From an uncultured virus (IMG/VR IMGVR_UViG_3300017990_000011) (Duplodnaviria > Heunggongvirae > Uroviricota > Caudoviricetes): a stretch of 20,000 nucleotides of DNA. Under the pieces are notes generated by a model. It was given only the letters and a program-made list of their open reading frames with translations, was not told the DNA's origin and did no database searches. Below are positions 2,789 to 19,720 of the stretch, one piece after another (the first letter of the stretch is position 1; every line of letters begins with the position of its first letter). The stretch lies in IMG/VR virus record IMGVR_UViG_3300017990_000011. One strand, written 5' to 3'. The translations under genes and the position numbers were made by a program.

Positions 2789-3265
2789 TTAATCTATTTT
2801 AATTTTAACAAGATCGTCTTTTTCAATATCTTCCTTACCGATAATGCAGTTAACGATCCCATTTTCAAAACTACAATCGATTTTATCCGAGTCAACTTTG
2901 ACAGGGAATTTTAACATTCTTCTAAAAGATCTAGAGGAGATCTCCCTCATAAGGAATTTCTTATCCTTATCTTCAGACTCCTCTTTCTTATCAGCCTTAA
3001 TCAAAAGACAATTATCCTTCAACTCTAGAGACAAATCATCCTTATCAAAACCAGCTAATGCAATTTCGACCTCATATTCTTCGTCAGTTTCTACAACATT
3101 TATCTTAGGGAAAGAACTTTTGGGCTGCAGGTCTGCAAATGCCCTCATATCAAGTGTCCAATCCTTCCAAAAATTATCAAAAATGTCTTCGAAACGACTT
3201 GCTCCAAAAAACCTACTCAGTGAGTCAGGTCTGGATACCATTAAGTCTTTCCTATTTTTTCTCAT
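2789..3265 (-). CDS. Hsp20 / alpha-crystallin small heat shock protein
   Basis: FPKINVVET.EEYEVEIALAGFDKDDLSLEL, REIS.RSF.R, I...FENGIV: canonical alpha-crystallin domain. Confidence 0.95.
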   Translation of the reverse strand: MRKNRKDLMVSRPDSLSRFFGASRFEDIFDNFWKDWTLDMRAFADLQPKSSFPKINVVETDEEYEVEIALAGFDKDDLSLELKDNCLLIKADKKEESEDKDKKFLMREISSRSFRRMLKFPVKVDSDKIDCSFENGIVNCIIGKEDIEKDDLVKIKID

Positions 3266-3274
3266 AATTTATGT

Positions 3275-3304
3275 CCTCCCATAGTGTAAATTTATGGGCC
3301 CCCA
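3275..3304 (-). promoter_or_regulatory. hsp20 leader: SD-overlapping hairpin plus second copy of the GGGGGCCCATA element
   Basis: mRNA UGGGGGCCCAUA-AAUUUACAC-UAUGGGAGG; CCCAUA pairs with UAUGGG, which overlaps the GGGAGG SD. Confidence 0.5.
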
Positions 3305-3306
3305 AG

Positions 3307-3654
3307 TTAAATATAACACAATAGATCATAAAATTGATCGGTTCCATAAGGTGCTCGATTAGAACCAGGAATACAACGCAGCATGTTACTCGCCGCCACA
3401 GTATTCCACGAATGAATAACTATTGTAGTACCGCAATTAGGATTTGAAGTTTTTTCTAGAAATTTTGCAACATCTAGACCCTCACCGTTGCCTGTACCTA
3501 AATCATTATCCAAAAATATATAATCATAAGTAAATTCTTTTAAGTATTCTATAGCTTCATTAGCATTCTCAGTTATATCTAAGTGATGCTGTCCGAATCT
3601 TTCTATAAAGAAATTTACTCTTTGTGTATCATCTTCTAAAATCAAAAATCTCAT
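3307..3654 (-). CDS. Stand-alone receiver domain, cyclic-phosphate-processing (cREC)-type
   Basis: ILEDD, IFLDNDLG (family LDHDLG), G.DVAKFL and IVIHSWN; lacks the canonical REC Lys-Pro. Confidence 0.75.
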   Translation of the reverse strand: MRFLILEDDTQRVNFFIERFGQHHLDITENANEAIEYLKEFTYDYIFLDNDLGTGNGEGLDVAKFLEKTSNPNCGTTIVIHSWNTVAASNMLRCIPGSNRAPYGTDQFYDLLCYI

Positions 3655-3657
3655 TTG

Positions 3658-5709
3658 TTAATAACACTCATCTTTAAGTTTAACGTATTCTTTGAATACT
3701 TTATTTTCTTTCATTATTATACTTACTTCTATCAACTGTTTTATAACATATTTTAATTCTGCCAGCTCTGTGGGTTTGGTTAGATACATCCAAACATGTC
3801 TTTCAGAAAACCAGGATAGATCACTGTTAACCGGCGCTGTCCCTGAGAGAACTATGATTGGTAACTCTGGAAACTTATCACCAAGCTTCTTTGATATTTT
3901 AAATCCATCGATATCTGGTAAATTGATATCCAATATTAAAGCATCAGGTGTTGACTTACATGCTTTTCTTAGACCAACCATGCCGCCTTCTGCAACGTCC
4001 ACATTAAATTCATCGAAACCAGATAAATATGTCCTAATCATATCACTCACATCTTTATTGTCTTCTATAATTAAAATATTGTACACATCTTTGCCTTGAG
4101 TTAACTTGCTTAAGCGATTCTTTATTTTTCTCTCGGCATGCATGATTGCTTTTTTAGCATCAAGTTCATACTTTCTCTCTTTAGTTATGTCTTTACAAAC
4201 ACCAATTACTTTTATTGGAGTACCGTCTTTATCAAACACTATATTACCACGATCAATCCAAGTTAATAGTTTTCCACTTTTGTGTTTGATTTGATATTCA
4301 ACGCTTGTTTGACTATGCTCAGGCGTGATCTGTTTTACTGCATTATCAAATAATGCTCTATCCTTATCAACTATATGTTCGCGCCACGAATCAAATGATC
4401 TTATAAATTCACCAGGCTCGTATCCTAATATACCATCAATATCTCCAAACCAAGTTACACCATTCTTAGGAATGGATCTCTCATAAACAAGATCTACAGT
4501 GGATTCAATTGCCAATTTAAATCTTTCTTTGCTCTCTCTTAATTGTTCTTCTGCTATTTTACGCTCTGTTATATCTTCTTTAACAGCAGCATATCCTGTA
4601 ACATCACCATCCTCATCGCGCATTGGTGTTATAATAGCATTTTCCCAATAAATCTCACCATCTTTTCTTTTGTTGGCGAATTCACCTTGCCAATCTTTGC
4701 CGGCAACTAACGTGTCCCACATCTCTTTGTAAAATTCTTGAGATTGTAGCTCAGCTTTAAGTATTCTAGGATTCTCCCCTATGGCTTCTTCTTTACTATA
4801 ACCACTTACCTGTGAGAATTTGGGATTAACGTAGTCTATTGTGCCTTCTAAATCAGTAAGTACCACTGATACCTGGCTTTGTTCTACTACTGAAGATAAT
4901 TTTTTTAGCTCGGCTTCAGCTTTCTTACGTTTTGTAACATCATTAAACATTGTTGCCATTTTATTTGGGCTTGTTTGAAACGCGCTGATCTCATATACCC
5001 CTGATACACCATCATCACCTTCATAACAGAACTCTGGCCACTCATGAACAACACCATCTCTAGCTATCTCTTTGTATGCATTAGGTATCTCCGTCTCAAC
5101 TAACCGTGGAAATGCTTCTTCTATAGTTTTACCTATGAATTTTGTGTTATCTATACCCATGATTTTATCAGCGGCGGGGTTGGCTCCAACAAATATAAGT
5201 TGCCCGTCTTCATTTAATTCGTATAAATGCATGCCAGCTACTGACGACTCAACTATATTACGGTGTTTCATTTCACTATCATGTAAAGCTTTCTCCGCTA
5301 TTTTACGCTCCGTTATATCCTGCAAATACACAATATAGCCCAACAATATTTGTTCGTCATCATATATAGGAGCTTTAGCGCGGTGGTACCAACCATTTAA
5401 TCTGTCTATAAAAACCTCATCAATAGTTGGGTCTACTATACTAATACAGTTTTGGTCACAATAAGCGAAATTACTATTCATCACATCGAAACAATGTAAG
5501 TCTAAATAATCTTCCCTTTGACCACCAAAATTTTCTAAAAACGCTTTATTAACAAATTTAATTTTTAATTCTGTATTTACAATATGAACTAACGCAGGTA
5601 CGGCGTCCAACACGAACTCCCATTCCTTGGTCCTATCAACTAAATACCCATTTGTGGTTAATACATCGGTTAATTCTCGTAATTTTTTAAGCTCTTCCAT
5701 TACTGTCAT
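3658..5709 (-). CDS. Multi-PAS sensor protein (4 PAS/PAC) with C-terminal receiver domain, no kinase or output domain
   Basis: Four PAS repeats ending QDITERK, NDVTKRK, EDITERK, KDITKER; REC with IIED, LILDINLPDIDG, IIVLSG, YLTKP. Confidence 0.9.
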   Translation of the reverse strand: MTVMEELKKLRELTDVLTTNGYLVDRTKEWEFVLDAVPALVHIVNTELKIKFVNKAFLENFGGQREDYLDLHCFDVMNSNFAYCDQNCISIVDPTIDEVFIDRLNGWYHRAKAPIYDDEQILLGYIVYLQDITERKIAEKALHDSEMKHRNIVESSVAGMHLYELNEDGQLIFVGANPAADKIMGIDNTKFIGKTIEEAFPRLVETEIPNAYKEIARDGVVHEWPEFCYEGDDGVSGVYEISAFQTSPNKMATMFNDVTKRKKAEAELKKLSSVVEQSQVSVVLTDLEGTIDYVNPKFSQVSGYSKEEAIGENPRILKAELQSQEFYKEMWDTLVAGKDWQGEFANKRKDGEIYWENAIITPMRDEDGDVTGYAAVKEDITERKIAEEQLRESKERFKLAIESTVDLVYERSIPKNGVTWFGDIDGILGYEPGEFIRSFDSWREHIVDKDRALFDNAVKQITPEHSQTSVEYQIKHKSGKLLTWIDRGNIVFDKDGTPIKVIGVCKDITKERKYELDAKKAIMHAERKIKNRLSKLTQGKDVYNILIIEDNKDVSDMIRTYLSGFDEFNVDVAEGGMVGLRKACKSTPDALILDINLPDIDGFKISKKLGDKFPELPIIVLSGTAPVNSDLSWFSERHVWMYLTKPTELAELKYVIKQLIEVSIIMKENKVFKEYVKLKDECY

Positions 5710-5729
5710 TTAGAATACCCCTTTAAAAT

Positions 5730-6332
5730 CTAGTCCACAGCCTTAAAAAAATACATCTTAATAAGATACAAAATAAATACTACCAAACCACCACTAACAG
5801 TACCGGCAATTATACCCCATGTAGCAATTTTAGTATTGATCTCCGTAATAGATAGTTTGATTGGTTGTATGGCTTCTTTTTGAGCCGATGCGTCTTTGAC
5901 ATGTTCAACTTTAGATTCAAGTATTTCTGCATGTAAATCGGTTTTAAGTTTGGATATAGCAGCGGTTATGGATTTATCAACAACCTCTTTATCCAACATG
6001 TTGTTGACTTTTTCTACTAAATCATCTATACGTTTGTTAAGTCTTTGTTCAATTTTATCTGTGTCTCCGTCTATCTCTCTATTTAATGCTTTGATGTCAT
6101 CTCTGACATCTTCCTTGAGCTGCATCAGTTGTTTTTGTATAACTGTTTTATTATTTAAATAATCAGCTCGGAGATTCTGCAACGCTTCTTGCATTTTCTC
6201 CATACTAGTCACAAGTTGATTAAACCAATCCTTCTTGATCTGCTCAGCTTCCCTAGTATGTACAATATCAGATATGGGTGAAGAAGATGTCTTGGATAAT
6301 ACTGTTTCTAATTTTTTATCCTCATCGTTCAT
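5730..6332 (-). CDS. Coiled-coil protein with a single C-terminal transmembrane helix
   Basis: Long helical heptad-rich body, then hydrophobic IATWGIIAGTVSGGLVVFILYLIK. Confidence 0.75.
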   Translation of the reverse strand: MNDEDKKLETVLSKTSSSPISDIVHTREAEQIKKDWFNQLVTSMEKMQEALQNLRADYLNNKTVIQKQLMQLKEDVRDDIKALNREIDGDTDKIEQRLNKRIDDLVEKVNNMLDKEVVDKSITAAISKLKTDLHAEILESKVEHVKDASAQKEAIQPIKLSITEINTKIATWGIIAGTVSGGLVVFILYLIKMYFFKAVD

Positions 6333-6342
6333 TTCACAGCAC

Positions 6343-6537
6343 CTAGTCTTTTAATTTTTTGCCACAAAAAGGACAAAAAGATACACTCATCCCAAACCGA
6401 TGGATTTGACTATGTGTTTTCTCCTCAGTTAACTCAATCCAAGACAGGACCCACCCATAAGATGGATCCTGAATGAATAGTCGTTTGTGGTCTTTCTCTA
6501 ACTCTTTCCAATCTTTACAACTGCAAAAATCACTCAT
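6343..6537 (-). CDS. Small putative zinc-binding protein
   Basis: FCSC near the N-terminus and FCPFCGKKL at the C-terminus. Confidence 0.7.
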   Translation of the reverse strand: MSDFCSCKDWKELEKDHKRLFIQDPSYGWVLSWIELTEEKTHSQIHRFGMSVSFCPFCGKKLKD

Positions 6538-6542
6538 TTGTA

Positions 6543-7049
6543 TTAGCTACCCATATAAGGATCGCTGCCATCATACTTACCACCGTATGAATGCCAACCT
6601 TCTGTGGGCCAATTCTTGATACCAGCATTAGCTGTAGCTAGAATACCAGCAGCGGTTCTTTCTTTCGCGTCCATTACATCAAACTTCGGTGGGTCTACCT
6701 GAGCACCCGCACTAGTAGACATAAGCAGTCTGGAAAACTGATCATCACGCACATACTTTACAGTAGAACCCCATACCAATGGATTCTCATTGCGTTCTGC
6801 ATATTGCCACTCTGGTCTAATTGCATTGACATCAGACGAATTATCTTTGTTGGCAAACCAAAGCACCGTCTTGGTGTAATCGTCCGCACTTCTCTGCCCT
6901 ACAAACAAGGCACCAAAATTAGAAATCTTAGAGTCTAAAGCTCGTCTGATAGGCGTATTAACATCAGACCTAATTTGTGTGTCACGATCTGGTTCCTCAA
7001 CACCAGTGTGTGGAATTTGAAAAAAATCGAAATTAAATACCTCAGCCAT
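6543..7049 (-). CDS. Hypothetical protein (168 aa)
   Basis: AGGAGG SD upstream; no recognised motif. Confidence 0.8.
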   Translation of the reverse strand: MAEVFNFDFFQIPHTGVEEPDRDTQIRSDVNTPIRRALDSKISNFGALFVGQRSADDYTKTVLWFANKDNSSDVNAIRPEWQYAERNENPLVWGSTVKYVRDDQFSRLLMSTSAGAQVDPPKFDVMDAKERTAAGILATANAGIKNWPTEGWHSYGGKYDGSDPYMGS

Positions 7050-8016: not shown

Positions 8017-8808
8017 TTAAATATAATTATGGTTGTTGCTAATATAATTTAATGTAACGGACATGACTAACTTTTCGATATTTTCTATATCAGGTTCTGA
8101 TGGAAGCGGTGATTTGACATATGCTTTATCAGTGAGTTCGAACAATCTATTGGCCTCATCTTTAACATCTTCCAACTTCCATTTACCTAATTTAATTTCT
8201 AATAATCTTTTCGCATCAGCTCTAGCAACAAATAACTCACCAGTTAATAAGAATTCCATACCCATTCTAAGTAAACGAACACAATGAGCAGCATTTTTAG
8301 TATCATAACCAAACTTATCAACCAATGCCTTACGTTTTTGGCCCATATATCCTTCTGTACTATAGTTTTCCATCTTATGTAGTTGCCCACTAGCATACCC
8401 TGTAAAAGATTGGTAAGCTTTCTTGGAAGAAAACAAATCACGGTTTTCAATTAACAACTTTCCATAGGTGGAACGTTGGATATAGTGATTCTCCTTGAGC
8501 CACAGCATGGACAACACATTGGGATTAGATTTAATAAGTAGATTGACAAACCTTCTAAATTCATAGTTAACAACATCATACTTACCAACAAACCTTTCTC
8601 TTCCCTTATTGTATTTCTTATAGCCACGACCCAATCCAATATAGTATTCTTTAGGTGCCATATACACACCCATTAAATCCACATCATCAATACTATGAGG
8701 ATCTGTGTTAGGCACATACATATCATGCGCAACACTACCACGGTACCCAACCAGAACTGTGCGGTCTGGAAACAATAATCTTTTTAATTCTTCTGTGAGT
8801 TCTTTCAT
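8017..8808 (-). CDS. Pol-beta superfamily nucleotidyltransferase (RlaP/YcgL-like)
   Basis: RGSVAH, DDVDLMGVY (DxD), KSNPNVL, GYA.GQ, YDTKNAAHCVRLL. Confidence 0.85.
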   Translation of the reverse strand: MKELTEELKRLLFPDRTVLVGYRGSVAHDMYVPNTDPHSIDDVDLMGVYMAPKEYYIGLGRGYKKYNKGRERFVGKYDVVNYEFRRFVNLLIKSNPNVLSMLWLKENHYIQRSTYGKLLIENRDLFSSKKAYQSFTGYASGQLHKMENYSTEGYMGQKRKALVDKFGYDTKNAAHCVRLLRMGMEFLLTGELFVARADAKRLLEIKLGKWKLEDVKDEANRLFELTDKAYVKSPLPSEPDIENIEKLVMSVTLNYISNNHNYI

Positions 8809-12405: not shown

Positions 12406-12843
12406 CTATATTCCTGTTGAACCGAGACCACCAGTTCCTCTAGCTGTCTCATCTAATTTCGATGTTTCTATAAAATGCCCTTTATAAAAGGACGTAAACA
12501 CAATTTGAGCTACTCTATCACCAGTACGTATAGCAAAATCTTGGCGAGAGAAATTTATTAATGGAATTTTTAACTCGCCTCGAAAATCATTATCTATAGT
12601 TGCTGGTGAATTAATGAGAGTCACACCATGTTTTATAGCCAAACCAGATCTTGGTCTTATTTGCCCCTCTATTTCCTCCGGTATAGCTACCGCTAACCCC
12701 GTTCTAATAAGATAGACATTTCCTGGTTTTAATACATAATTTTCTACCGCATACAAATCAGCTCCTGCACTACCTCTAGTAGCATATAGCGGTATCTGTG
12801 CATCTGTATGCAGTTTTGTAAATAATATTCTTATATCATTCAT
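12406..12843 (-). CDS. dut: Trimeric dUTPase
   Basis: SAGADL, RPRSGLA, TID.DFRGE, GDRVAQ, RG.GGLGSTG; true start likely ATG 12843 (AGGAG SD, ATGA overlap with the endonuclease stop). Confidence 0.95.
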   Translation of the reverse strand: MNDIRILFTKLHTDAQIPLYATRGSAGADLYAVENYVLKPGNVYLIRTGLAVAIPEEIEGQIRPRSGLAIKHGVTLINSPATIDNDFRGELKIPLINFSRQDFAIRTGDRVAQIVFTSFYKGHFIETSKLDETARGTGGLGSTGI

Positions 12844-13553
12844 TTTTTGTCTCCTTGTGTGTATCTCCAAATATAACCACCAGCAGATTTTCTTTTATTT
12901 TTACAGCATGCGTTTATGTTCCTACGTTCTATATTTAATTCTCGGCTGGCATCGATTATTGCATCCCATTCCCTCACAAAATCACCAGTTATATTATATT
13001 GCGTAATTGCTTTAACGTGGTCTGAGCGGTTGTATGATTTAGATTGTTTTTCTCTAGTTTCTTTTGAGTATTTTTTACCAGTGTTTATTTTGGATAGATA
13101 ATTACGAGTCCTTATTGAATGTTTTTTACCATAAAATGGATTGTTTTTGCCTTGTGTTCTAGCTTTACTATTCAAACCTATTTTTATTTTTGTTTCTCTT
13201 GAATGTTTGTGACCTTTTAACGCTTTAGATATTTTATTACGAGTGTCATCATTACACCTATTCCCTTGCCCGCCTTTTGTTTTGTTATACCCCTCTTTAT
13301 CTATATATGATTTAAACTCTTCTATCCAATAAATTTCTCTACTATACAAATCACTTTCTTCACACAACTCTAAGATATTAAATATGAAAGCAGATTTATC
13401 GTATCTAATATAATCCAATTGTAAAGTTTCATTGTGATGGCATTTATATTTAAGTAATTTTTTATGTTGTTTAATCCTCTTATATATATCTACACTAGCT
13501 CCAATATAAACTTTTTTATTAACTTTATTTGTCAGGATATAAATACCAATCAT
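12840..13553 (-). CDS. Free-standing GIY-YIG homing endonuclease with NUMOD3 repeats and NUMOD1-like HTH
   Basis: GIY..TN..NKKVYIG, R...H, E, GYN..KGG; HS.ETK.KI repeats, GKNNPFYGKKHS; I.ACC...RKSAGGYIWRY. Start at ATG 13553 (TAATG overlap with the pol stop). Confidence 0.92.
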   Translation of the reverse strand: MIGIYILTNKVNKKVYIGASVDIYKRIKQHKKLLKYKCHHNETLQLDYIRYDKSAFIFNILELCEESDLYSREIYWIEEFKSYIDKEGYNKTKGGQGNRCNDDTRNKISKALKGHKHSRETKIKIGLNSKARTQGKNNPFYGKKHSIRTRNYLSKINTGKKYSKETREKQSKSYNRSDHVKAITQYNITGDFVREWDAIIDASRELNIERRNINACCKNKRKSAGGYIWRYTQGDKK

Positions 13554-15478
13554 TAGTCTTGCAGCCCTCCGCATTTTTTACAAACAGTTCTAGTACCATA
13601 TTTTTCATCTGAAATAGAGCCCATCTCACTGTGGTTACATTCAACACCGTTAATTTTATGGCTGCAGCTATCTTTTAACCAGCAGTCGCCTATTAGCGCG
13701 TCTGTTTCCATTGGAATCAAATCAAAATATTTTCCAAAACCATCTATTAAAGATTGTTCTACTATAGCCCTTACTTCATGTTTTATATCTTCCCTGGCTT
13801 CAACAATGATCTCATCATGGACTGTTAACAATAACTTAGCATCAAGCCCACTTCGTTCTAATCTTTCCACAACAAGATTCATAGATTCTTTAATAGTATC
13901 AGCATTAGACCCCTGAATGGGGGCATTCTTACCACGCCTCTCTACACTTCCTTTAATCTTATTATAATCTGGGTGCCCATAGTCTGGAAGATTATAATAT
14001 CTTTTCCTACCACTAATGGATCTACTATACCTATTTCTTAACGCATTTCTACCAGATTCAGTCAGAAAACGTTTAACATGTTTATAAGTATTGAGATATC
14101 CATTTATAATTTTTTGAGCGGCAGGCTCAGAGATTTTTAATCTCTTAGCTAGCCCGTATTTAGACATACCATAAACAATACCAAACCCGACAGCCTTAGC
14201 TGCACCACGTTGTTCCTTAGTAACTTCTTCCATAGGTACATTGAACACACCACTTGCGGTCTTAGTGTGGAGATCAATACCATTGGCATATGAATCAATA
14301 AAAATAGGATCCTTTGCTAAGTTTCCAAGGATCCTTAATTCTGCGCCCGACATATCAGATGTGATTAAAACATACCCCTCTTTGGCTATGAAACAACTTC
14401 TAAACTTTTGTTTCTTTGGAATGTTTTGTAGGTTAGGATTAGAGCTACTCATCCTACCAGTAGACACCATCTGTCTAAAGTCTGTGTGTAATCTTTTGGT
14501 TACTTTATTTATCTTTTCTATGAGGGGTTCTGCATAGGTTGAAATCAGTTTGTTGGCTTTGCGGTAATCTAAGAGAGCATCTATAACTGGTATTCCTTTA
14601 TACCTTTTAAGCTCTGCTTCAGATGTGCTCTCTAACTCTAGCCCGTATTTCTTCAATGATTTCATTAGTTGTGATGGGCTGTCTATATTAACTGCGGAGA
14701 CACCGAACATAGTTAGTTGATCCTCTGCTGCAGTCAATGTATCTGCTACTGCTTTCCCTGCTTCTCTTCTATCATCATCGATGTCAGACATAATGGCGCG
14801 CCACTTTGGTACATCCAAAGTAATGCCATTCAACTCCATCTCACACATAGGCTTAAGAAAATTGAATTCTAATTCAGAGACGTTCTCTAAACCCTCCTGT
14901 TGTATCTTAGGCCACTGCATCTCTCTAATCATATCTAATACTACTACATCATTAGCAGCATATTCTAATTGGTATGGTTCAAACTTTTGTCCATATTCTT
15001 GAAATGTACCACGTGGCTCTTTATCCATGTTAACACCAAGATACCTTAAAACCAATGCATCCAATCCTGCCTTAGTATATCTACCAAGATTAAGCATCTG
15101 TTCCACTAACATAGTATCATATACATTATTTAAATAATAACCAGCAGATGTTTTTATCTGCTTCATATCAAACGCTGCGTTCTGTAGTATCTTAGTATGT
15201 TTATCACTTGTAAGAATTGGTTCTAGTGTGTCTAAACCAACACTACTGTGCTCTGTGTCACTTCTGACATCAAAAACAAAATAGTTATTGGGTACACCTA
15301 TCTGTACTAAAGAAATCTTAGAAGTAAATGGATCTAATCCTGTGGTCTCAGTATCCAACGAATACGCTGAGTATCTGTCTAACAAAGACATTACAGTCTT
15401 AGCATCTTCTTCTGTTGTCACATATGTATATTTAGGTTTAGGCAACCTAACCTTTTTAGTTTCAAAAACTGATGTCAA
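13553..15478 (-). CDS. polA: Family A DNA polymerase (3'-5' exonuclease + polymerase, no 5'-3' exonuclease)
   Basis: LDTETTG, QNAAFD, YAANDV exonuclease motifs; TGRMSSSNPNLQNIP, DMSGAELR, AK..GFGIVYG, IQGS.AD, VHDE; TTG start with GGAGG SD. Confidence 0.95.
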   Translation of the reverse strand: MTSVFETKKVRLPKPKYTYVTTEEDAKTVMSLLDRYSAYSLDTETTGLDPFTSKISLVQIGVPNNYFVFDVRSDTEHSSVGLDTLEPILTSDKHTKILQNAAFDMKQIKTSAGYYLNNVYDTMLVEQMLNLGRYTKAGLDALVLRYLGVNMDKEPRGTFQEYGQKFEPYQLEYAANDVVVLDMIREMQWPKIQQEGLENVSELEFNFLKPMCEMELNGITLDVPKWRAIMSDIDDDRREAGKAVADTLTAAEDQLTMFGVSAVNIDSPSQLMKSLKKYGLELESTSEAELKRYKGIPVIDALLDYRKANKLISTYAEPLIEKINKVTKRLHTDFRQMVSTGRMSSSNPNLQNIPKKQKFRSCFIAKEGYVLITSDMSGAELRILGNLAKDPIFIDSYANGIDLHTKTASGVFNVPMEEVTKEQRGAAKAVGFGIVYGMSKYGLAKRLKISEPAAQKIINGYLNTYKHVKRFLTESGRNALRNRYSRSISGRKRYYNLPDYGHPDYNKIKGSVERRGKNAPIQGSNADTIKESMNLVVERLERSGLDAKLLLTVHDEIIVEAREDIKHEVRAIVEQSLIDGFGKYFDLIPMETDALIGDCWLKDSCSHKINGVECNHSEMGSISDEKYGTRTVCKKCGGLQD

Positions 15479-16615: not shown

Positions 16616-19600
16616 TTATTCTAATAAATAATACCAAAACTTAGAGTTTTCTTCATCATTTTGTCTTTCTTCTATAACAATAACCCCACCAGTTGTCGCC
16701 AACAATATCAAATTATCACTACTGGAATATCTTGATACACCTTCTAAAACTGATATATCATTAAATAAAACATTAGATAATATAAGACCATCTCCTGGTA
16801 TATACACATGACCAGCGGTGGCTTCTGTCCAGTTAGATGTATTATTGTATACAGCTATAAACTTAATACCATTAACAAGAGGATCGATTGTTTCTTCTGA
16901 TAATAATATACTTGTATCATAGTAAGATAAATCAACGTACATGTCTTTTAGATAAGTAATTCTGGTACTATAGTAATGCGACGCTCCTGGATATAGTGTC
17001 CTAACATCCGCTCTACATGTGTGTTCAAATGGTACCATAGACCATTCACTATCACTTGTCTTTTTATAAAATATGTTGGAACCACATTTTAATATTTCTA
17101 TTTTAACATCGTACCAAGTATTAAATTCAAATGGGTAATCAGTAAGACTACTTGTACCAATCTGATCATCAGTTACACGGAGATAACCATAGGCTTCTGG
17201 CTCCCCTGAATCTTTATAAAAATAAACTTCTGTATCACGTTCACTGCGATCGAATGTTTCATTATCTCTATAAAGTCCGGCAAAAGAATTAGCTGTTTGT
17301 GTTAGACTCACACTGAATAATAAACGAGGATTGGAGCCACTAATACTTGGCATAAAAGCGTCCCTATCCAACATCAATTCGTTTGCCATTATACCACAGT
17401 CCCAGGCGCTATTATCATTTCTTATTTTTAGAGCGTTGGATTCTAATGTTATAAATGAGCTTGAGTCTGGTGCTTTGTTAAAGGCATATAGGTCGTCATA
17501 GTTATCAAATCTATAAGGTATTGTAAAACTATTTATATCCTCGCTATTTCCCGCTGAGGAGTTTCCATAATACATATAGAACTCAGTAGTTCCTTCTGGT
17601 GGTAATGTTCTTATATAGGACACACCACTAGTGGTCCAATGTTCAAATTTATGTGGTATATCTGTTAAATTATTTATTGGATCTCCACCTTGCCAATACA
17701 TTTCTGCGGAATTATCTGGTATTTGTTTAAATCTTATATCACTACCATCTGGATTTACTTTACTATAATCAAATGAATTAAGATTGCTACTTTCATATAA
17801 CTCCCATTGCGCAAGTTTTAAATTATCATTTGCTGTCATACCACTAAGTCTATACCATCTATAGGGTGTGTAATCATATGAATCCTGGCGTGTGTGGTAT
17901 CTCAGTTCAGCTATCCTATTACCAGTGGCACCTGGAATAGAGACAGCTCTTATGAATTTAAATCGTCTCAACGCCTGTTTTCGAGGATAAAGATATCGCC
18001 AAGACTGTATAGGAGAGCCACCTGAACCCATTATCATAACTTCTTCGCCTGAAAATTCTCCTGTATTAGAACCATAAAATAAAATACTTCTAGGTGCCTG
18101 ATCAGAAGAACTATAAAGCGATCTAAAACCAATCCGATCCACATATTTTGGCTCTTCAAATTCATACTGTAACCAGTTAGTTGGCGGCTGACCTAAATCT
18201 ATATATGTATTCGTATCATCATCAAAAACTATACTAGCATCACCATTTCCAGACCAAGTTGTTGCTACACCATAACTAGTTGCAAGAGACCAAGTAGTGG
18301 TTGACACTCGAATAAATATCGGACAGTAACCAGGATATTTATTCGGGCTTTTCCATTCAGTTGTACCTATTGTACCTAATGAATCCCATGTACCATCACT
18401 GCCATCTGTAGAATCATTAGAACCTTCTATATCAGGGGTATCGGTGATAATTCTATTACTCGCATTAGCATCTGTGGCACACAATTTCATGAAATGAACT
18501 ACCTTTTCGTTGCCGGCGCCAAAATCTACAGCCAAATATGTCATACCCTGACAATATGTTGTCAAATCACCATCGGACATATTACTAGGATCACCACCAG
18601 AATTATTAGCATAGTGTGTGTAAACTTCACCACCATGAAGTAGTGATTCACCAGCTGGGAATACTTTGTAATCCTCTGTTTCTTGCCAGTCATACACCAA
18701 AGCCTTATAGGCGTATAATTCCATAATTAAAATATTTACTGTGGATGTTGATCTTAATCTTATATATCTATAAGGTGTTGCGTTTTCAAAATCTAAGGTG
18801 TGTAATACTTTTGCTGGTGTTGTGCTTTGTTCATGTAAAACAATATAATTTATACCATCATTACTACCAGCTATTTGTGTAGGGTCATACCCATAGCCGG
18901 TTGAGGTAAGACTTCCTGGTTTTATTTCTACTCTACAAACAGCAGTGCCACTACCTGGTCCGAAATCATAGTACCAAGATGAATCAGGTGTATTCCAATC
19001 GCCCCAGGAATCTGTGTTTGGCGGCAACGCTTTGTGCGCATTTGAACTGTTTTCTGCTGCAGAACAGTTAGCATCATTAGTAAAAACAGTGGCACTATAT
19101 GTTATAAGATCTTTTTTATATACTTTATTTGTGTTTAAATCTAAATATGTTTCATATGGATTTCCCACACCTGAAGCTGGAACACCATAACCTTGATTAT
19201 CATATGTACTATAAGGTAGCTCTACATAAACTGTATCATTTTTTATGGTTGGTTGTGGTAGTTTTACCGTTCTTCTATATTGCCAGTTAGATGGCATATC
19301 ATCATCTTGTAGATAATAAAATCTACCTGTTGATGTTTGAAAACATTTACTAGAACCATAATCCAAATCAGTATAGGATCTGGCGGAGGTGTCCATGTTT
19401 ATATGATCAACACCTGAAACAGTTGACACACAAATATAATCATCTGCGCCATGTACATAATTTACTACATTGTTAGTTATATCAGGTTCGCTGAGATATT
19501 GATGTGTGTCTTGAACACCAGAGATTGTAGATATAGTACATCTATATACACCCGAGTCAGTAGTGCCTAGATATACATAAGTATCATCAGCCCAAACAGA

Positions 19601-19720
19601 GTTGACACCTGCGGCGTAACCAACTAACCATATCATTGCCTCAGTCTCACTATCATATACATTGACACCGCTTAGGGTAGATTGATATATATAATCTTCA
19701 GTTGACCATATGTTAGGCAT
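16616..19720 (-). CDS. Large putative virion/tail-associated protein with discoidin (F5/8C)-like and DUF2341-like domains
   Basis: S/T/G/Y/W-rich beta protein; three discoidin-like units (D/EF...GSN...YR/FKFIR...EL), DUF2341-like WQYRR / FDYSKVNPDGSDIRF / FYMYYGN, and propeller-like termini. Confidence 0.75.
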   Translation of the reverse strand: MPNIWSTEDYIYQSTLSGVNVYDSETEAMIWLVGYAAGVNSVWADDTYVYLGTTDSGVYRCTISTISGVQDTHQYLSEPDITNNVVNYVHGADDYICVSTVSGVDHINMDTSARSYTDLDYGSSKCFQTSTGRFYYLQDDDMPSNWQYRRTVKLPQPTIKNDTVYVELPYSTYDNQGYGVPASGVGNPYETYLDLNTNKVYKKDLITYSATVFTNDANCSAAENSSNAHKALPPNTDSWGDWNTPDSSWYYDFGPGSGTAVCRVEIKPGSLTSTGYGYDPTQIAGSNDGINYIVLHEQSTTPAKVLHTLDFENATPYRYIRLRSTSTVNILIMELYAYKALVYDWQETEDYKVFPAGESLLHGGEVYTHYANNSGGDPSNMSDGDLTTYCQGMTYLAVDFGAGNEKVVHFMKLCATDANASNRIITDTPDIEGSNDSTDGSDGTWDSLGTIGTTEWKSPNKYPGYCPIFIRVSTTTWSLATSYGVATTWSGNGDASIVFDDDTNTYIDLGQPPTNWLQYEFEEPKYVDRIGFRSLYSSSDQAPRSILFYGSNTGEFSGEEVMIMGSGGSPIQSWRYLYPRKQALRRFKFIRAVSIPGATGNRIAELRYHTRQDSYDYTPYRWYRLSGMTANDNLKLAQWELYESSNLNSFDYSKVNPDGSDIRFKQIPDNSAEMYWQGGDPINNLTDIPHKFEHWTTSGVSYIRTLPPEGTTEFYMYYGNSSAGNSEDINSFTIPYRFDNYDDLYAFNKAPDSSSFITLESNALKIRNDNSAWDCGIMANELMLDRDAFMPSISGSNPRLLFSVSLTQTANSFAGLYRDNETFDRSERDTEVYFYKDSGEPEAYGYLRVTDDQIGTSSLTDYPFEFNTWYDVKIEILKCGSNIFYKKTSDSEWSMVPFEHTCRADVRTLYPGASHYYSTRITYLKDMYVDLSYYDTSILLSEETIDPLVNGIKFIAVYNNTSNWTEATAGHVYIPGDGLILSNVLFNDISVLEGVSRYSSSDNLILLATTGGVIVIEERQNDEENSKFWYYLLE

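Follow-up and report, generated by a model that had tools for sequence, protein, structure and literature searches.

The window, by which we mean the whole stretch of 20,000 nucleotides analyzed here, comes from an uncultured large phage of sediment and seawater source. A preliminary description, made from the letters of this DNA, had pointed to four closely spaced co-directional genes, and all four open reading frames (ORFs) are indeed found as a cassette on the minus strand:

6332-5730, minus strand: ORF of a tail-anchored coiled-coil membrane protein, 200 aa
5709-3658, minus strand: ORF of a sensor with four PAS domains and a receiver, 683 aa
3654-3307, minus strand: ORF of a stand-alone cREC protein, 115 aa
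3265-2789, minus strand: ORF of an Hsp20 small heat-shock protein, 158 aa

The neighbors of the cassette in the window are replication and nucleotide-metabolism genes. The sensor and cREC genes are separated by a 3-nt gap and are in frame (TAA-CAA-ATG). Stop-codon read-through joining the two proteins can nonetheless be ruled out, because in the relative L001 the corresponding gap of 2 nt puts the two genes in different frames. A promoter and terminator scan gave no clear difference from shuffled sequences (26 promoter-like sites versus 20.2 +/- 4.8 in the shuffles).

The sensor itself can be divided into five parts:

5275..5709, minus strand: residues 1-145, N-terminal helix and PAS1, common to all family members (N-termini of 21 members aligned)
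4924..5274, minus strand: residues 146-262, PAS2 (TIGR00229 in 4 stretches, PAS_4 in 4 stretches)
4534..4923, minus strand: residues 263-392, PAS3, with a flavin-type (NifL/Aer-like) S-box (best PAS stretch 266-390)
4150..4533, minus strand: residues 393-520, PAS4 (PAS_3 match at 422-504)
3658..4149, minus strand: residues 521-683 and the stop codon, comprising a helical linker, the receiver (545-656, Response_reg match) and an amphipathic C-terminal tail

Profile searches agree with the earlier claim of four PAS domains and an intact receiver that lack any output domain. There are four separate PAS/S-box matches (TIGR00229, “PAS S-box”, and PAS_4 likewise), followed, after a linker of about 25 residues between PAS4 and the receiver, by a Response_reg domain (PF00072, residues 545-656; 67.3 bits, cut-off 30.2). 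The key receiver residues (E549-D550, D594, S622 and K645-P646) are kept in the 61%-identical homolog P0002, and the receiver’s C-terminal tail is homologous in all eight of the receiver-bearing family members. At E<=1 the 683-aa sensor matches PAS families, Response_reg and one sub-threshold DUF and nothing else, with no match to HisKA, HATPase_c, GGDEF, EAL or DNA-binding families. The protein is under purifying selection, with a dN/dS of ~0.15 against L001 at a saturated dS.

A redox-sensing role had also been proposed, and here the PDB sequence matches are in accord: the best ones for PAS3 (residues 282-394) are 3ewk (E 9.7e-43), an aerotaxis receptor and a nitrogen fixation regulatory protein, making flavin-type redox PAS domains its closest kin. 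In these matches PAS3, a putative flavin binder, resembles the FAD-binding sensors NifL and Aer and 3ewk, an MmoS-type “Sensor protein”. LOV blue-light photoreceptors are marked by a cysteine that forms the flavin adduct and is conserved in their flavin-binding motif. At the position of this cysteine PAS3 reads GENPRILK in both the window and P0002 and has none, so that a LOV photoreceptor can be ruled out.

The N-terminal helix and PAS1 are the best conserved part of the sensor. Among the 119 other sensor matches listed, none is confined to PAS1 (query residues up to 160) and no bacterial one is of this kind; judged among these matches, PAS1 appears as a domain specific to the phage family. 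PAS2 to PAS4 with the C-terminal receiver, on the other hand, are like the corresponding parts of bacterial multi-PAS hybrid histidine kinases (P0003, P0012 and P0077, from Bacteroidota, Ignavibacteria and other metagenome bins), but the phage protein has its own N-terminal PAS1 and lacks a HisKA/HATPase core between PAS4 and the receiver. The family is modular, extending from a single PAS domain (157 aa) to PAS2-GAF-PAS-REC (727 aa), with no kinase, cyclase, EAL or DNA-binding domain in any of the 21 members. The classical receiver, noted as intact in the preliminary description, is found in only eight of the 21 and thus is not the conserved element.

Nor was a histidine kinase (HisKA and HATPase_c above cut-off) found among the 26 ORFs of the window, which belongs to a contig of up to 144,731 bp, or in any of five related partial phage records (30-57% complete), and there is no kinase domain among the 148 ORFs of the 141.5-kb relative G001. 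The lack of a kinase noted previously thus extends over all of this material. A two-component system would have a cognate HisKA and HATPase_c, or an HPt, beside the receiver, and the DNA examined has no such arrangement. In the window and the five related records (30-57% complete), cREC accordingly shows the family trait of never occurring with a histidine kinase.

The product of the third gene had been taken for a second, atypical receiver beginning 3 nt after the sensor. Atypical it is, but it is more than this: it belongs to the published cREC family and is the sensor’s constant partner. Pfam cREC_REC (PF20274) matches it at 61.7 bits (cut-off 27), whereas Response_reg reaches 25.0, under its cut-off of 30.2. 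It has an acidic pocket (E7-D8-D9 and D49/D51) and a motif H81-S82-W83-N84; in the cREC alignment E7, D8, D9, D49 and D51 are conserved, and most members have alanine where a classical receiver has the lysine that precedes the conserved proline. The AlphaFold model (pLDDT 94.2) aligns with receiver domains at a Foldseek TM of ~0.75 and 12-22% identity, and its best viral structural match carries the name “cREC protein”. As modeled, cREC has a confident receiver (flavodoxin-like) fold with pocket aspartates.

In the accessible text of two papers on the family (PMC7824862, PMC9503650), cREC is predicted to be a phosphoesterase/cyclic-phosphate enzyme acting on RNA ends that carry a cyclic phosphate or on ADP-ribose cyclic phosphate; the latter paper (PMC9503650) states that the protein is experimentally uncharacterized and its function a prediction. 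Our protein is like the jumbo- and medium-phage cREC described there (PMC7824862, PMC9503650) in its above-cut-off profile, small size, stand-alone form, receiver fold, two-aspartate pocket and lack of an adjoining histidine kinase. The neighbors given in that text are Nudix, sirtuin, 2H, RNA ligase and WYL genes (PMC7824862, PMC9503650). Compared with those contexts, the tightly spaced neighbors here are different, namely a PAS/GAF(/REC) sensor and Hsp20, a setting to which that text makes no reference. The genome of a relative shares NAD salvage and RNA-repair genes with the cREC phages so described (PMC7824862, PMC9503650). That relative, G001, encodes an RNA ligase, RtcB, RlaP, a TROVE protein, a CCA/poly(A) polymerase-type enzyme, Nudix and PTH2, together with a set for NAD salvage; those for RNA repair and NAD lie 20-100 kb from cREC and do not adjoin it. 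A row of 20 tRNA genes begins ~4 kb after cREC in G001, a tRNA lies 2.75 kb after it in L001, and in the window RlaP is 4.4 kb upstream.

The gene order is common to seven IMG/VR contigs, two metagenome contigs and two mis-binned MAG contigs. Such recurrence was one of the checks proposed for the cassette in the preliminary description, and the same contigs uphold its phage origin. The constant core consists of the membrane protein, the sensor (with its invariant N-terminal helix and PAS1) and cREC. It is present in eight of the ten loci whose upstream side is visible, with the sensor directly upstream of cREC at a spacing of -23 to +37 nt, and in 8/8 loci the two coding regions either overlap or lie almost end to end. 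The two exceptions, L029 and L030, keep cREC and have a weakly TPR-like gene in place of the sensor. In both, the cREC acidic pocket is lost (G stands at the D49 position, and “LEDD” has given way to other residues); in all eight sensor-linked loci it is intact.

The assignment to phages rests on gene content, the IMG/VR classification and a single baseplate/virion-type PHROG match beside the clamp loader of G001; Terminase_6N was found in none of the five related records. The carrier is probably a jumbo-sized phage. No cultured phage has a near-DNA match to the window or a tblastn match to cREC, and the 683-aa sensor has partial domain matches alone among them (<60% identity, 13 records). The window has no exact 53-mer match in a viral contig collection; scans of that collection with the sensor and with cREC singly found nothing, and one with the DNA polymerase found one distant locus (L024) that lacks the synteny. 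A scan of genome contigs yielded three loci: two fragments of the same phage clade binned into MAGs and one distant cREC that has no PAS. Searches of the open-access literature brought up no phage cassette of the PAS-cREC or PAS-REC kind.

The make-up of the cassette suggests that its phage reads the state of the host. Tentatively, we favor a kinase-independent phage sensory device in which the sensor controls cREC, the predicted cyclic-phosphate/RNA-end enzyme. Having no output domain of its own, the sensor must act by protein contact, and cREC, small and encoded directly after it, would be its most likely target. The sensor would be cytoplasmic, with the invariant N-terminal helix and PAS1 followed by a variable PAS/GAF array and sometimes by a classical receiver; the tail-anchored coiled-coil protein encoded directly before it is a likely anchor. 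The flavin-type PAS3 could report the redox or energy state of the host, the GAF domain of the relatives may bind a small ligand, and the receiver, where there is one, might receive phosphoryl groups from host kinases or from acetyl phosphate. By switching cREC on or off, the sensor would then tie the RNA/tRNA-repair and NAD-linked functions of the phage to the state of its host.

We count in favor of sensor control of cREC the tight adjacency of the two genes, the loss of the cREC pocket where there is no sensor, the want of output domains in all 21 family members, the conservation of PAS1 and the purifying selection on the sensor. What G001 encodes for RNA repair and NAD salvage, the nearby tRNAs, the receiver fold of cREC and the published prediction for it are further points on the same side. 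Against it we count the collinearity of the region, the lack of a PAS fusion in the cREC representatives scanned, the unequal divergence of the genes and the distance of the G001 repair genes.

Several of these points lend themselves to another explanation, which we consider somewhat unlikely: the sensor and membrane protein could be functionally separate from cREC and held next to it by inherited order, with cREC working alone in RNA/tRNA-end repair and the sensor regulating something else, for example a membrane-located protein of host or phage. Throughout these phages the genes keep the same order from dCMP deaminase to UDG, and the adjacency of sensor and cREC could therefore be inherited order and not functional coupling. 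The genes have also changed at very different rates: between the window and L001 the identity is 91% for cREC, 61% for the sensor and 52% for the membrane protein, with dN values of 0.05, 0.28 and 0.37, respectively, whereas binding partners often change together. Moreover, among the 11 longest of the best 150 cREC representatives there is no fusion with a PAS domain, and L029 and L030 manage with cREC and no sensor. What speaks for coupling is the overlap or near-abutment of the two coding regions in 8/8 loci and the loss of the cREC pocket in precisely those loci that have no sensor (2/2).

Single-domain response regulators serve as phosphate sinks in chemotaxis-type pathways, and the sensor’s receiver, intact and lacking an output domain, is like them. 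The preliminary description proposed a phosphate sink or decoy for host kinases. Spelled out, the receiver, and perhaps cREC, would drain phosphoryl groups from host kinases, or the PAS array would heterodimerize with a host PAS kinase, silencing a host two-component pathway during infection. It is in keeping with this that the key receiver residues are kept in two lineages, that no kinase occurs in the phage DNA examined, that bacterial kinases and cyclases have PAS domains with up to 64% identity to PAS3, and that two relatives lacking a fused receiver have a stand-alone classical receiver 3-7 kb off. But the phosphate-sink regulators differ in that no cognate kinase is known here and the receiver is optional in the family: 13 of the 21 members do without it, including single-PAS forms of 157-159 aa. 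The stand-alone receivers share only ~25% identity with their fused counterparts, the sensor receiver is just 24-36% identical to bacterial receivers among the matches listed, and the conserved PAS1 has no bacterial counterpart among the 119 other matches. With the receiver in 8/21 members and cREC as the constant partner, no sink or decoy role can lie at the core of the cassette; we regard this explanation as unlikely, and less likely than sensor control of cREC.

The membrane protein has a hydrophobic C-terminal stretch at about residues 172-196, read from the translation and taken as a transmembrane helix, and a conserved motif around W36 in its N-terminal part; W36 and W172 are invariant in the alignment. 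Its homologs lie directly upstream of the sensor in 9/9 sensor loci and are missing from the two sensor-less ones. It matches no Pfam family above cut-off, only weak coiled-coil-type profiles, and in the ESM Atlas it finds unnamed viral clusters and generic coiled-coil folds and nothing else. PADLOC gave no meaningful match, those to the membrane protein being coiled-coil noise. A holin/XhlA-type lysis protein was rejected: there is no Pfam match above cut-off and no lysin nearby, and a weak match to phrog_1193 “hemolysin” (E 3.4e-4) stands by itself. That the sensor docks on this protein and controls holin-like lysis timing, as had been suggested, or superinfection exclusion, according to host redox, thus seems very unlikely: the strict association and fast evolution of the two proteins and the phrog_1193 match are offset by the replication and nucleotide-metabolism surroundings, which have no endolysin or holin, and by the lack of a Pfam family or a credible PADLOC match, and the lysis-timing role draws no support from anything beyond the membrane protein itself.

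Returning to sensor control of cREC, a more specific form of it would be a kinase-free pathway of large lytic phages in which the membrane-tethered sensor directly gates a catalytic cREC, tuning RNA/tRNA repair or the destruction of nucleotide signals to host redox and energy state; this we consider doubtful. If true, it would provide the first regulator and the first physiological logic for cREC. The function of cREC is a five-year-old prediction, and its pairing with the sensor points to possible regulators and makes it testable whether lytic phages gauge host physiology with sensors of their own. The published context of cREC is qualified to the extent that there is still no adjoining kinase, yet classical signaling domains (PAS, GAF, REC) do adjoin it.

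To our knowledge, few phage-encoded sensors have been described, and these are mostly transcription factors of temperate phages. Here a multi-domain sensor lacking an output domain has been both retained and varied, beside cREC, across a whole clade of large uncultured phages. Like VqmA of vibriophage VP882, as presented in the accessible text of PMC8284805, it would be a phage-encoded PAS sensor reading a chemical cue. Compared by description, VqmA is a receptor and transcription factor in one (PMC8284805), whereas proteins of the present family lack a DNA-binding domain, comprise 1-5 sensor domains and go together with cREC and a membrane protein.

Finally, the identity of the Hsp20 gene stands as proposed (PF00011, alpha-crystallin domain, 69.3 bits; phrog_432, E 4.1e-25), but not its place as a constant member of the module. 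The ortholog is absent from 4/11 loci and directly follows cREC in the other 7/11, and is thus a frequent but dispensable downstream neighbor.

The four closely spaced genes that the preliminary description had proposed as a kinase-less sensory module (2789..6332) were recovered by ORF calling at exactly these coordinates, among 26 window ORFs that are tightly ordered and all on the minus strand:

5730..6332, minus strand, coiled-coil protein of 200 aa
3658..5709, minus strand, sensor of 683 aa
3307..3654, minus strand, cREC protein of 115 aa
2789..3265, minus strand, Hsp20 of 158 aa

The domain content expected of these genes was borne out as well. Profile searches of the sensor gave TIGR00229 PAS/S-box matches in the four stretches anticipated (PAS1 to PAS4) and a Response_reg match at residues 545-656 (67.3 bits against a cut-off of 30.2), whose supposedly intact receiver residues (E549-D550, D594, S622 and K645-P646) are present and kept in a 61%-identical homologue. 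The sensor had been said to lack a kinase or output domain, and HisKA, HATPase_c, GGDEF, EAL and DNA-binding families were all without a match at E≤1; beyond the PAS families and Response_reg, only a sub-threshold DUF was listed at that threshold. The second, atypical receiver does begin 3 nt past the sensor stop (junction TAA-CAA-ATG), matching Pfam cREC_REC at 61.7 bits (cut-off 27) with Response_reg below its cut-off. The Hsp20 assignment is clear-cut (PF00011, 69.3 bits), and the presumed transmembrane coiled-coil protein consists of a coiled coil and a hydrophobic C-terminal tail. Between the hsp20 stop and the gene after it lies a 20-nt perfect palindrome (2763-2782; 8-bp stem, GC-rich centre), possibly a terminator or a site for protein binding.

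A scan for a histidine kinase in the window and in related, partial records found none. HATPase_c and HisKA are absent from the 26 window ORFs and, in the related 141.5-kb phage record G001, from all 148 ORFs with 100 aa or more. Among five related partial records (CheckV completeness 30-57%) none has HisKA and none has HATPase_c above cut-off, the single match being one of 13 bits inside a 935-aa frame.

Retrievals with a profile of the shared N-terminal region, together with the loci compared below, gave a sensor family of 21 sequences, some of them close relatives.

Architectures in the sensor family and their lengths (a digit counts PAS domains)
PAS alone: 157-159 aa
PAS2: 275-292 aa
PAS3: 382-400 aa
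PAS2-REC: 432 aa
PAS3-REC: 545 aa
PAS4-REC: 683-685 aa
PAS2-GAF-PAS: 686-688 aa
longer PAS/GAF forms: 718 and 810 aa
PAS-GAF-PAS-REC: 716-717 aa
PAS2-GAF-PAS-REC: 726-727 aa

All members share an N-terminal helix, strongly conserved, that leads into PAS1, a region to which none of the 119 other hits of a whole-protein search was confined. A classical receiver occurs in 8 of the 21, and a kinase, cyclase, EAL or DNA-binding domain in none. In the window sensor, the third PAS domain reaches 64% identity with PAS domains from bacterial kinases and cyclases, against 24-36% for the receiver with bacterial receivers. The fused receivers form two groups only ~30% identical, but their homologous C-terminal amphipathic tail shows that they go back to one acquisition. 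G001 and G005 (another related phage record), whose sensors are without a receiver, encode a classical receiver of 120 aa as a gene of its own, 3-7 kb downstream and only ~25% identical to the fused ones. The G001 copy (stretch L040, 8002-8364; Response_reg 71 bits) sits between two tRNA-Leu genes inside a tRNA row, and the G005 copy is 49% identical to it.

Compared with the related locus L001, the sensor has a dN of 0.28 and a dN/dS of ~0.15 (a rough ratio, dS being saturated), against a dN of 0.05-0.10 for flanking genes, 0.05 for cREC and 0.37 for the membrane protein. The sensor is clearly constrained, although its rate is three to five times that of its neighbours; it is no decaying kinase relic.

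Iyer et al. (PMC7824862) defined cREC as a divergent kind of receiver that never accompanies histidine kinases, linked it to NAD/ADP-ribose and RNA-repair genes and predicted that it opens cyclic phosphates; according to a later paper (PMC9503650) it is experimentally uncharacterised and present in up to 18% of jumbo phages. Our cREC model has a confident receiver fold (pLDDT 94.2) and aligns with solved receivers at a TM-score of ~0.75 and 12-22% identity; among viral structures the top match bears the name cREC protein, while by sequence all solved structures are distant (best E 4e-4). The family is large (3,990 representatives at E≤0.001), and a scan of the longest 11 among the top 150 representatives turned up no PAS. 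G001 does encode genes of the kinds described as cREC companions, but 20-100 kb from cREC: RNA ligase, RtcB in two pieces, RlaP, a TROVE protein, a CCA/poly(A) polymerase-type enzyme, Nudix, PTH2 and a four-gene NAD salvage set. Its RtcB ORFs (stretch L045, 1205-2035 and 2227-2784) cover profile positions 154-425 and 12-153; the gene is either broken or interrupted by an intervening element. An RlaP-family nucleotidyltransferase, of an RNA-repair-pathway family, is encoded 4.4 kb upstream of cREC in the window (8017-8808); L001, L002 and G001 have one too.

In L001 a tRNA-Met lies 2.75 kb after cREC, and in G001 a row of 20 tRNA genes begins ~4 kb after it, these and a tmRNA-like call falling within 13 kb (L040, 4821-17823). 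A tRNA of G001 with anticodon CUA, called tRNA-Pyl (stretch L041, 3028-3103), is possibly an amber suppressor. It is a hint of stop-codon recoding in part of the G001 genome, which could be why few structural genes were recognised there.

The gene order of the window is found again in seven IMG/VR viral contigs (35-150 kb), two metagenome contigs and two short contigs binned into MAGs. We compared the window with 11 related loci (L001, L002, L025-L031, L047 and L048). Of the 10 loci in which the upstream side of cREC is visible, 8 have the sensor gene immediately before it (window, L001, L025, L026, L027, L028, L031 and L047); sensor stop and cREC start overlap by as much as 23 nt or lie as much as 37 nt apart. 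In 9/9 sensor loci, truncated L002 included, the gene before the sensor is that of the tail-anchored coiled-coil protein. Hsp20 directly follows cREC in 7 of the 11 with the downstream side visible (window, L025, L028, L029, L030, L047 and L048) and is missing there in L001, L026, L027 and L031. Both sensor and membrane protein are replaced in L029 and L030 by a weakly TPR-like protein of 151-154 aa, and the cREC of these two has lost its acidic pocket (glycine at the D49 position, 'LEDD' motif replaced), which each of the 8 sensor-linked loci retains. In every locus, the sensor-less two included, the cassette is preceded by a zinc-ribbon-like protein of 64 aa with four cysteines (6343-6537) and by a 168-aa protein (6543-7049).

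We tentatively favour a kinase-independent sensor with protein contact as its output. It would signal without a kinase by touching other proteins, with cREC as its likely target and the tail-anchored coiled-coil protein as its likely anchor; in members that have a receiver, this would supply a further input. Adjacency alone proves little, because the whole region is collinear in the clade, and this is the chief weakness of the reading. Beyond adjacency, coupling of sensor and cREC is suggested by the overlap of coding regions and by the fact that the cREC pocket is lost where the sensor is (only two loci), whereas the rate contrast (cREC 91% identical, sensor 61%) speaks somewhat against tight co-evolution; that the two are independent neighbours seems somewhat unlikely. 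The phosphate sink or decoy of the preliminary description is weakened by the absence of a receiver from 13 of the 21 family members, and we consider it unlikely. A membrane or lysis-timing role, exerted through the adjacent membrane protein, is very improbable. All parts of the cassette belong to known families. In the literature searched, and in passages of PMC7824862 and PMC9503650, we found no description of cREC paired with PAS/GAF/REC sensors, nor of output-less sensors that form a diversifying family in large phages.

As to what such a sensor would perceive, redox or a small ligand is plausible on sequence grounds. PAS3 (residues 263-392) matches, over residues 282-394, the PDB 'Sensor protein' 3ewk (E 9.7e-43) and also PDB sequences of an aerotaxis receptor and a nitrogen fixation regulatory protein, which are FAD-binding redox sensors; a GAF domain is added in sensor relatives. 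A LOV photoreceptor is ruled out for PAS3 by a proline at the LOV cysteine position (GENPRILK). PAS1 cysteines C73, C84 and C88 (window 5446-5494, residues 73-88) are kept in the 61%-identical relative and only C73 widely in the family (7/8 aligned); they may form a lineage-specific metal or iron-sulfur site.

The window encodes a family-A DNA polymerase, clamp loader, ribonucleotide reductase, dUTPase, dCMP deaminase, UDG, RNase HII and a 'phage metallopeptidase', and 20 of its 26 ORFs match PHROG families. Cultured phages gave no near-DNA match, their polymerases being ~31% identical at best; near-identical DNA is present in sediment and seawater metagenome runs. Hallmark-gene evidence for a phage is thin, since Terminase_6N is found in 0/5 related viral records and no capsid gene was identified. 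The clade is probably jumbo-sized, because some contigs with sensor and cREC homologues are as long as about 302-305 kb and the related records are so incomplete. Two fragments of the clade (L047 and L048) have ended up in MAG bins with the labels Saccharibacteria and Sulfurimonas, most likely through mis-binning, and these labels are not evidence of host.

Adjoining the clamp loader, G001 has a large LamG-type protein (969 aa) that matches baseplate and virion-structural PHROGs (E down to 1e-50). Its positional counterpart in the window (16616-19720; 1034 aa, F5/8 type C (discoidin) domains, no PHROG match) is probably a variable receptor-binding or structural protein. Finally, a GIY-YIG/NUMOD homing endonuclease gene (12840-13574) lies between the DNA polymerase and dUTPase genes, overlapping both; in G001 dUTPase comes straight after the polymerase, which makes the window gene a lineage-specific insertion.
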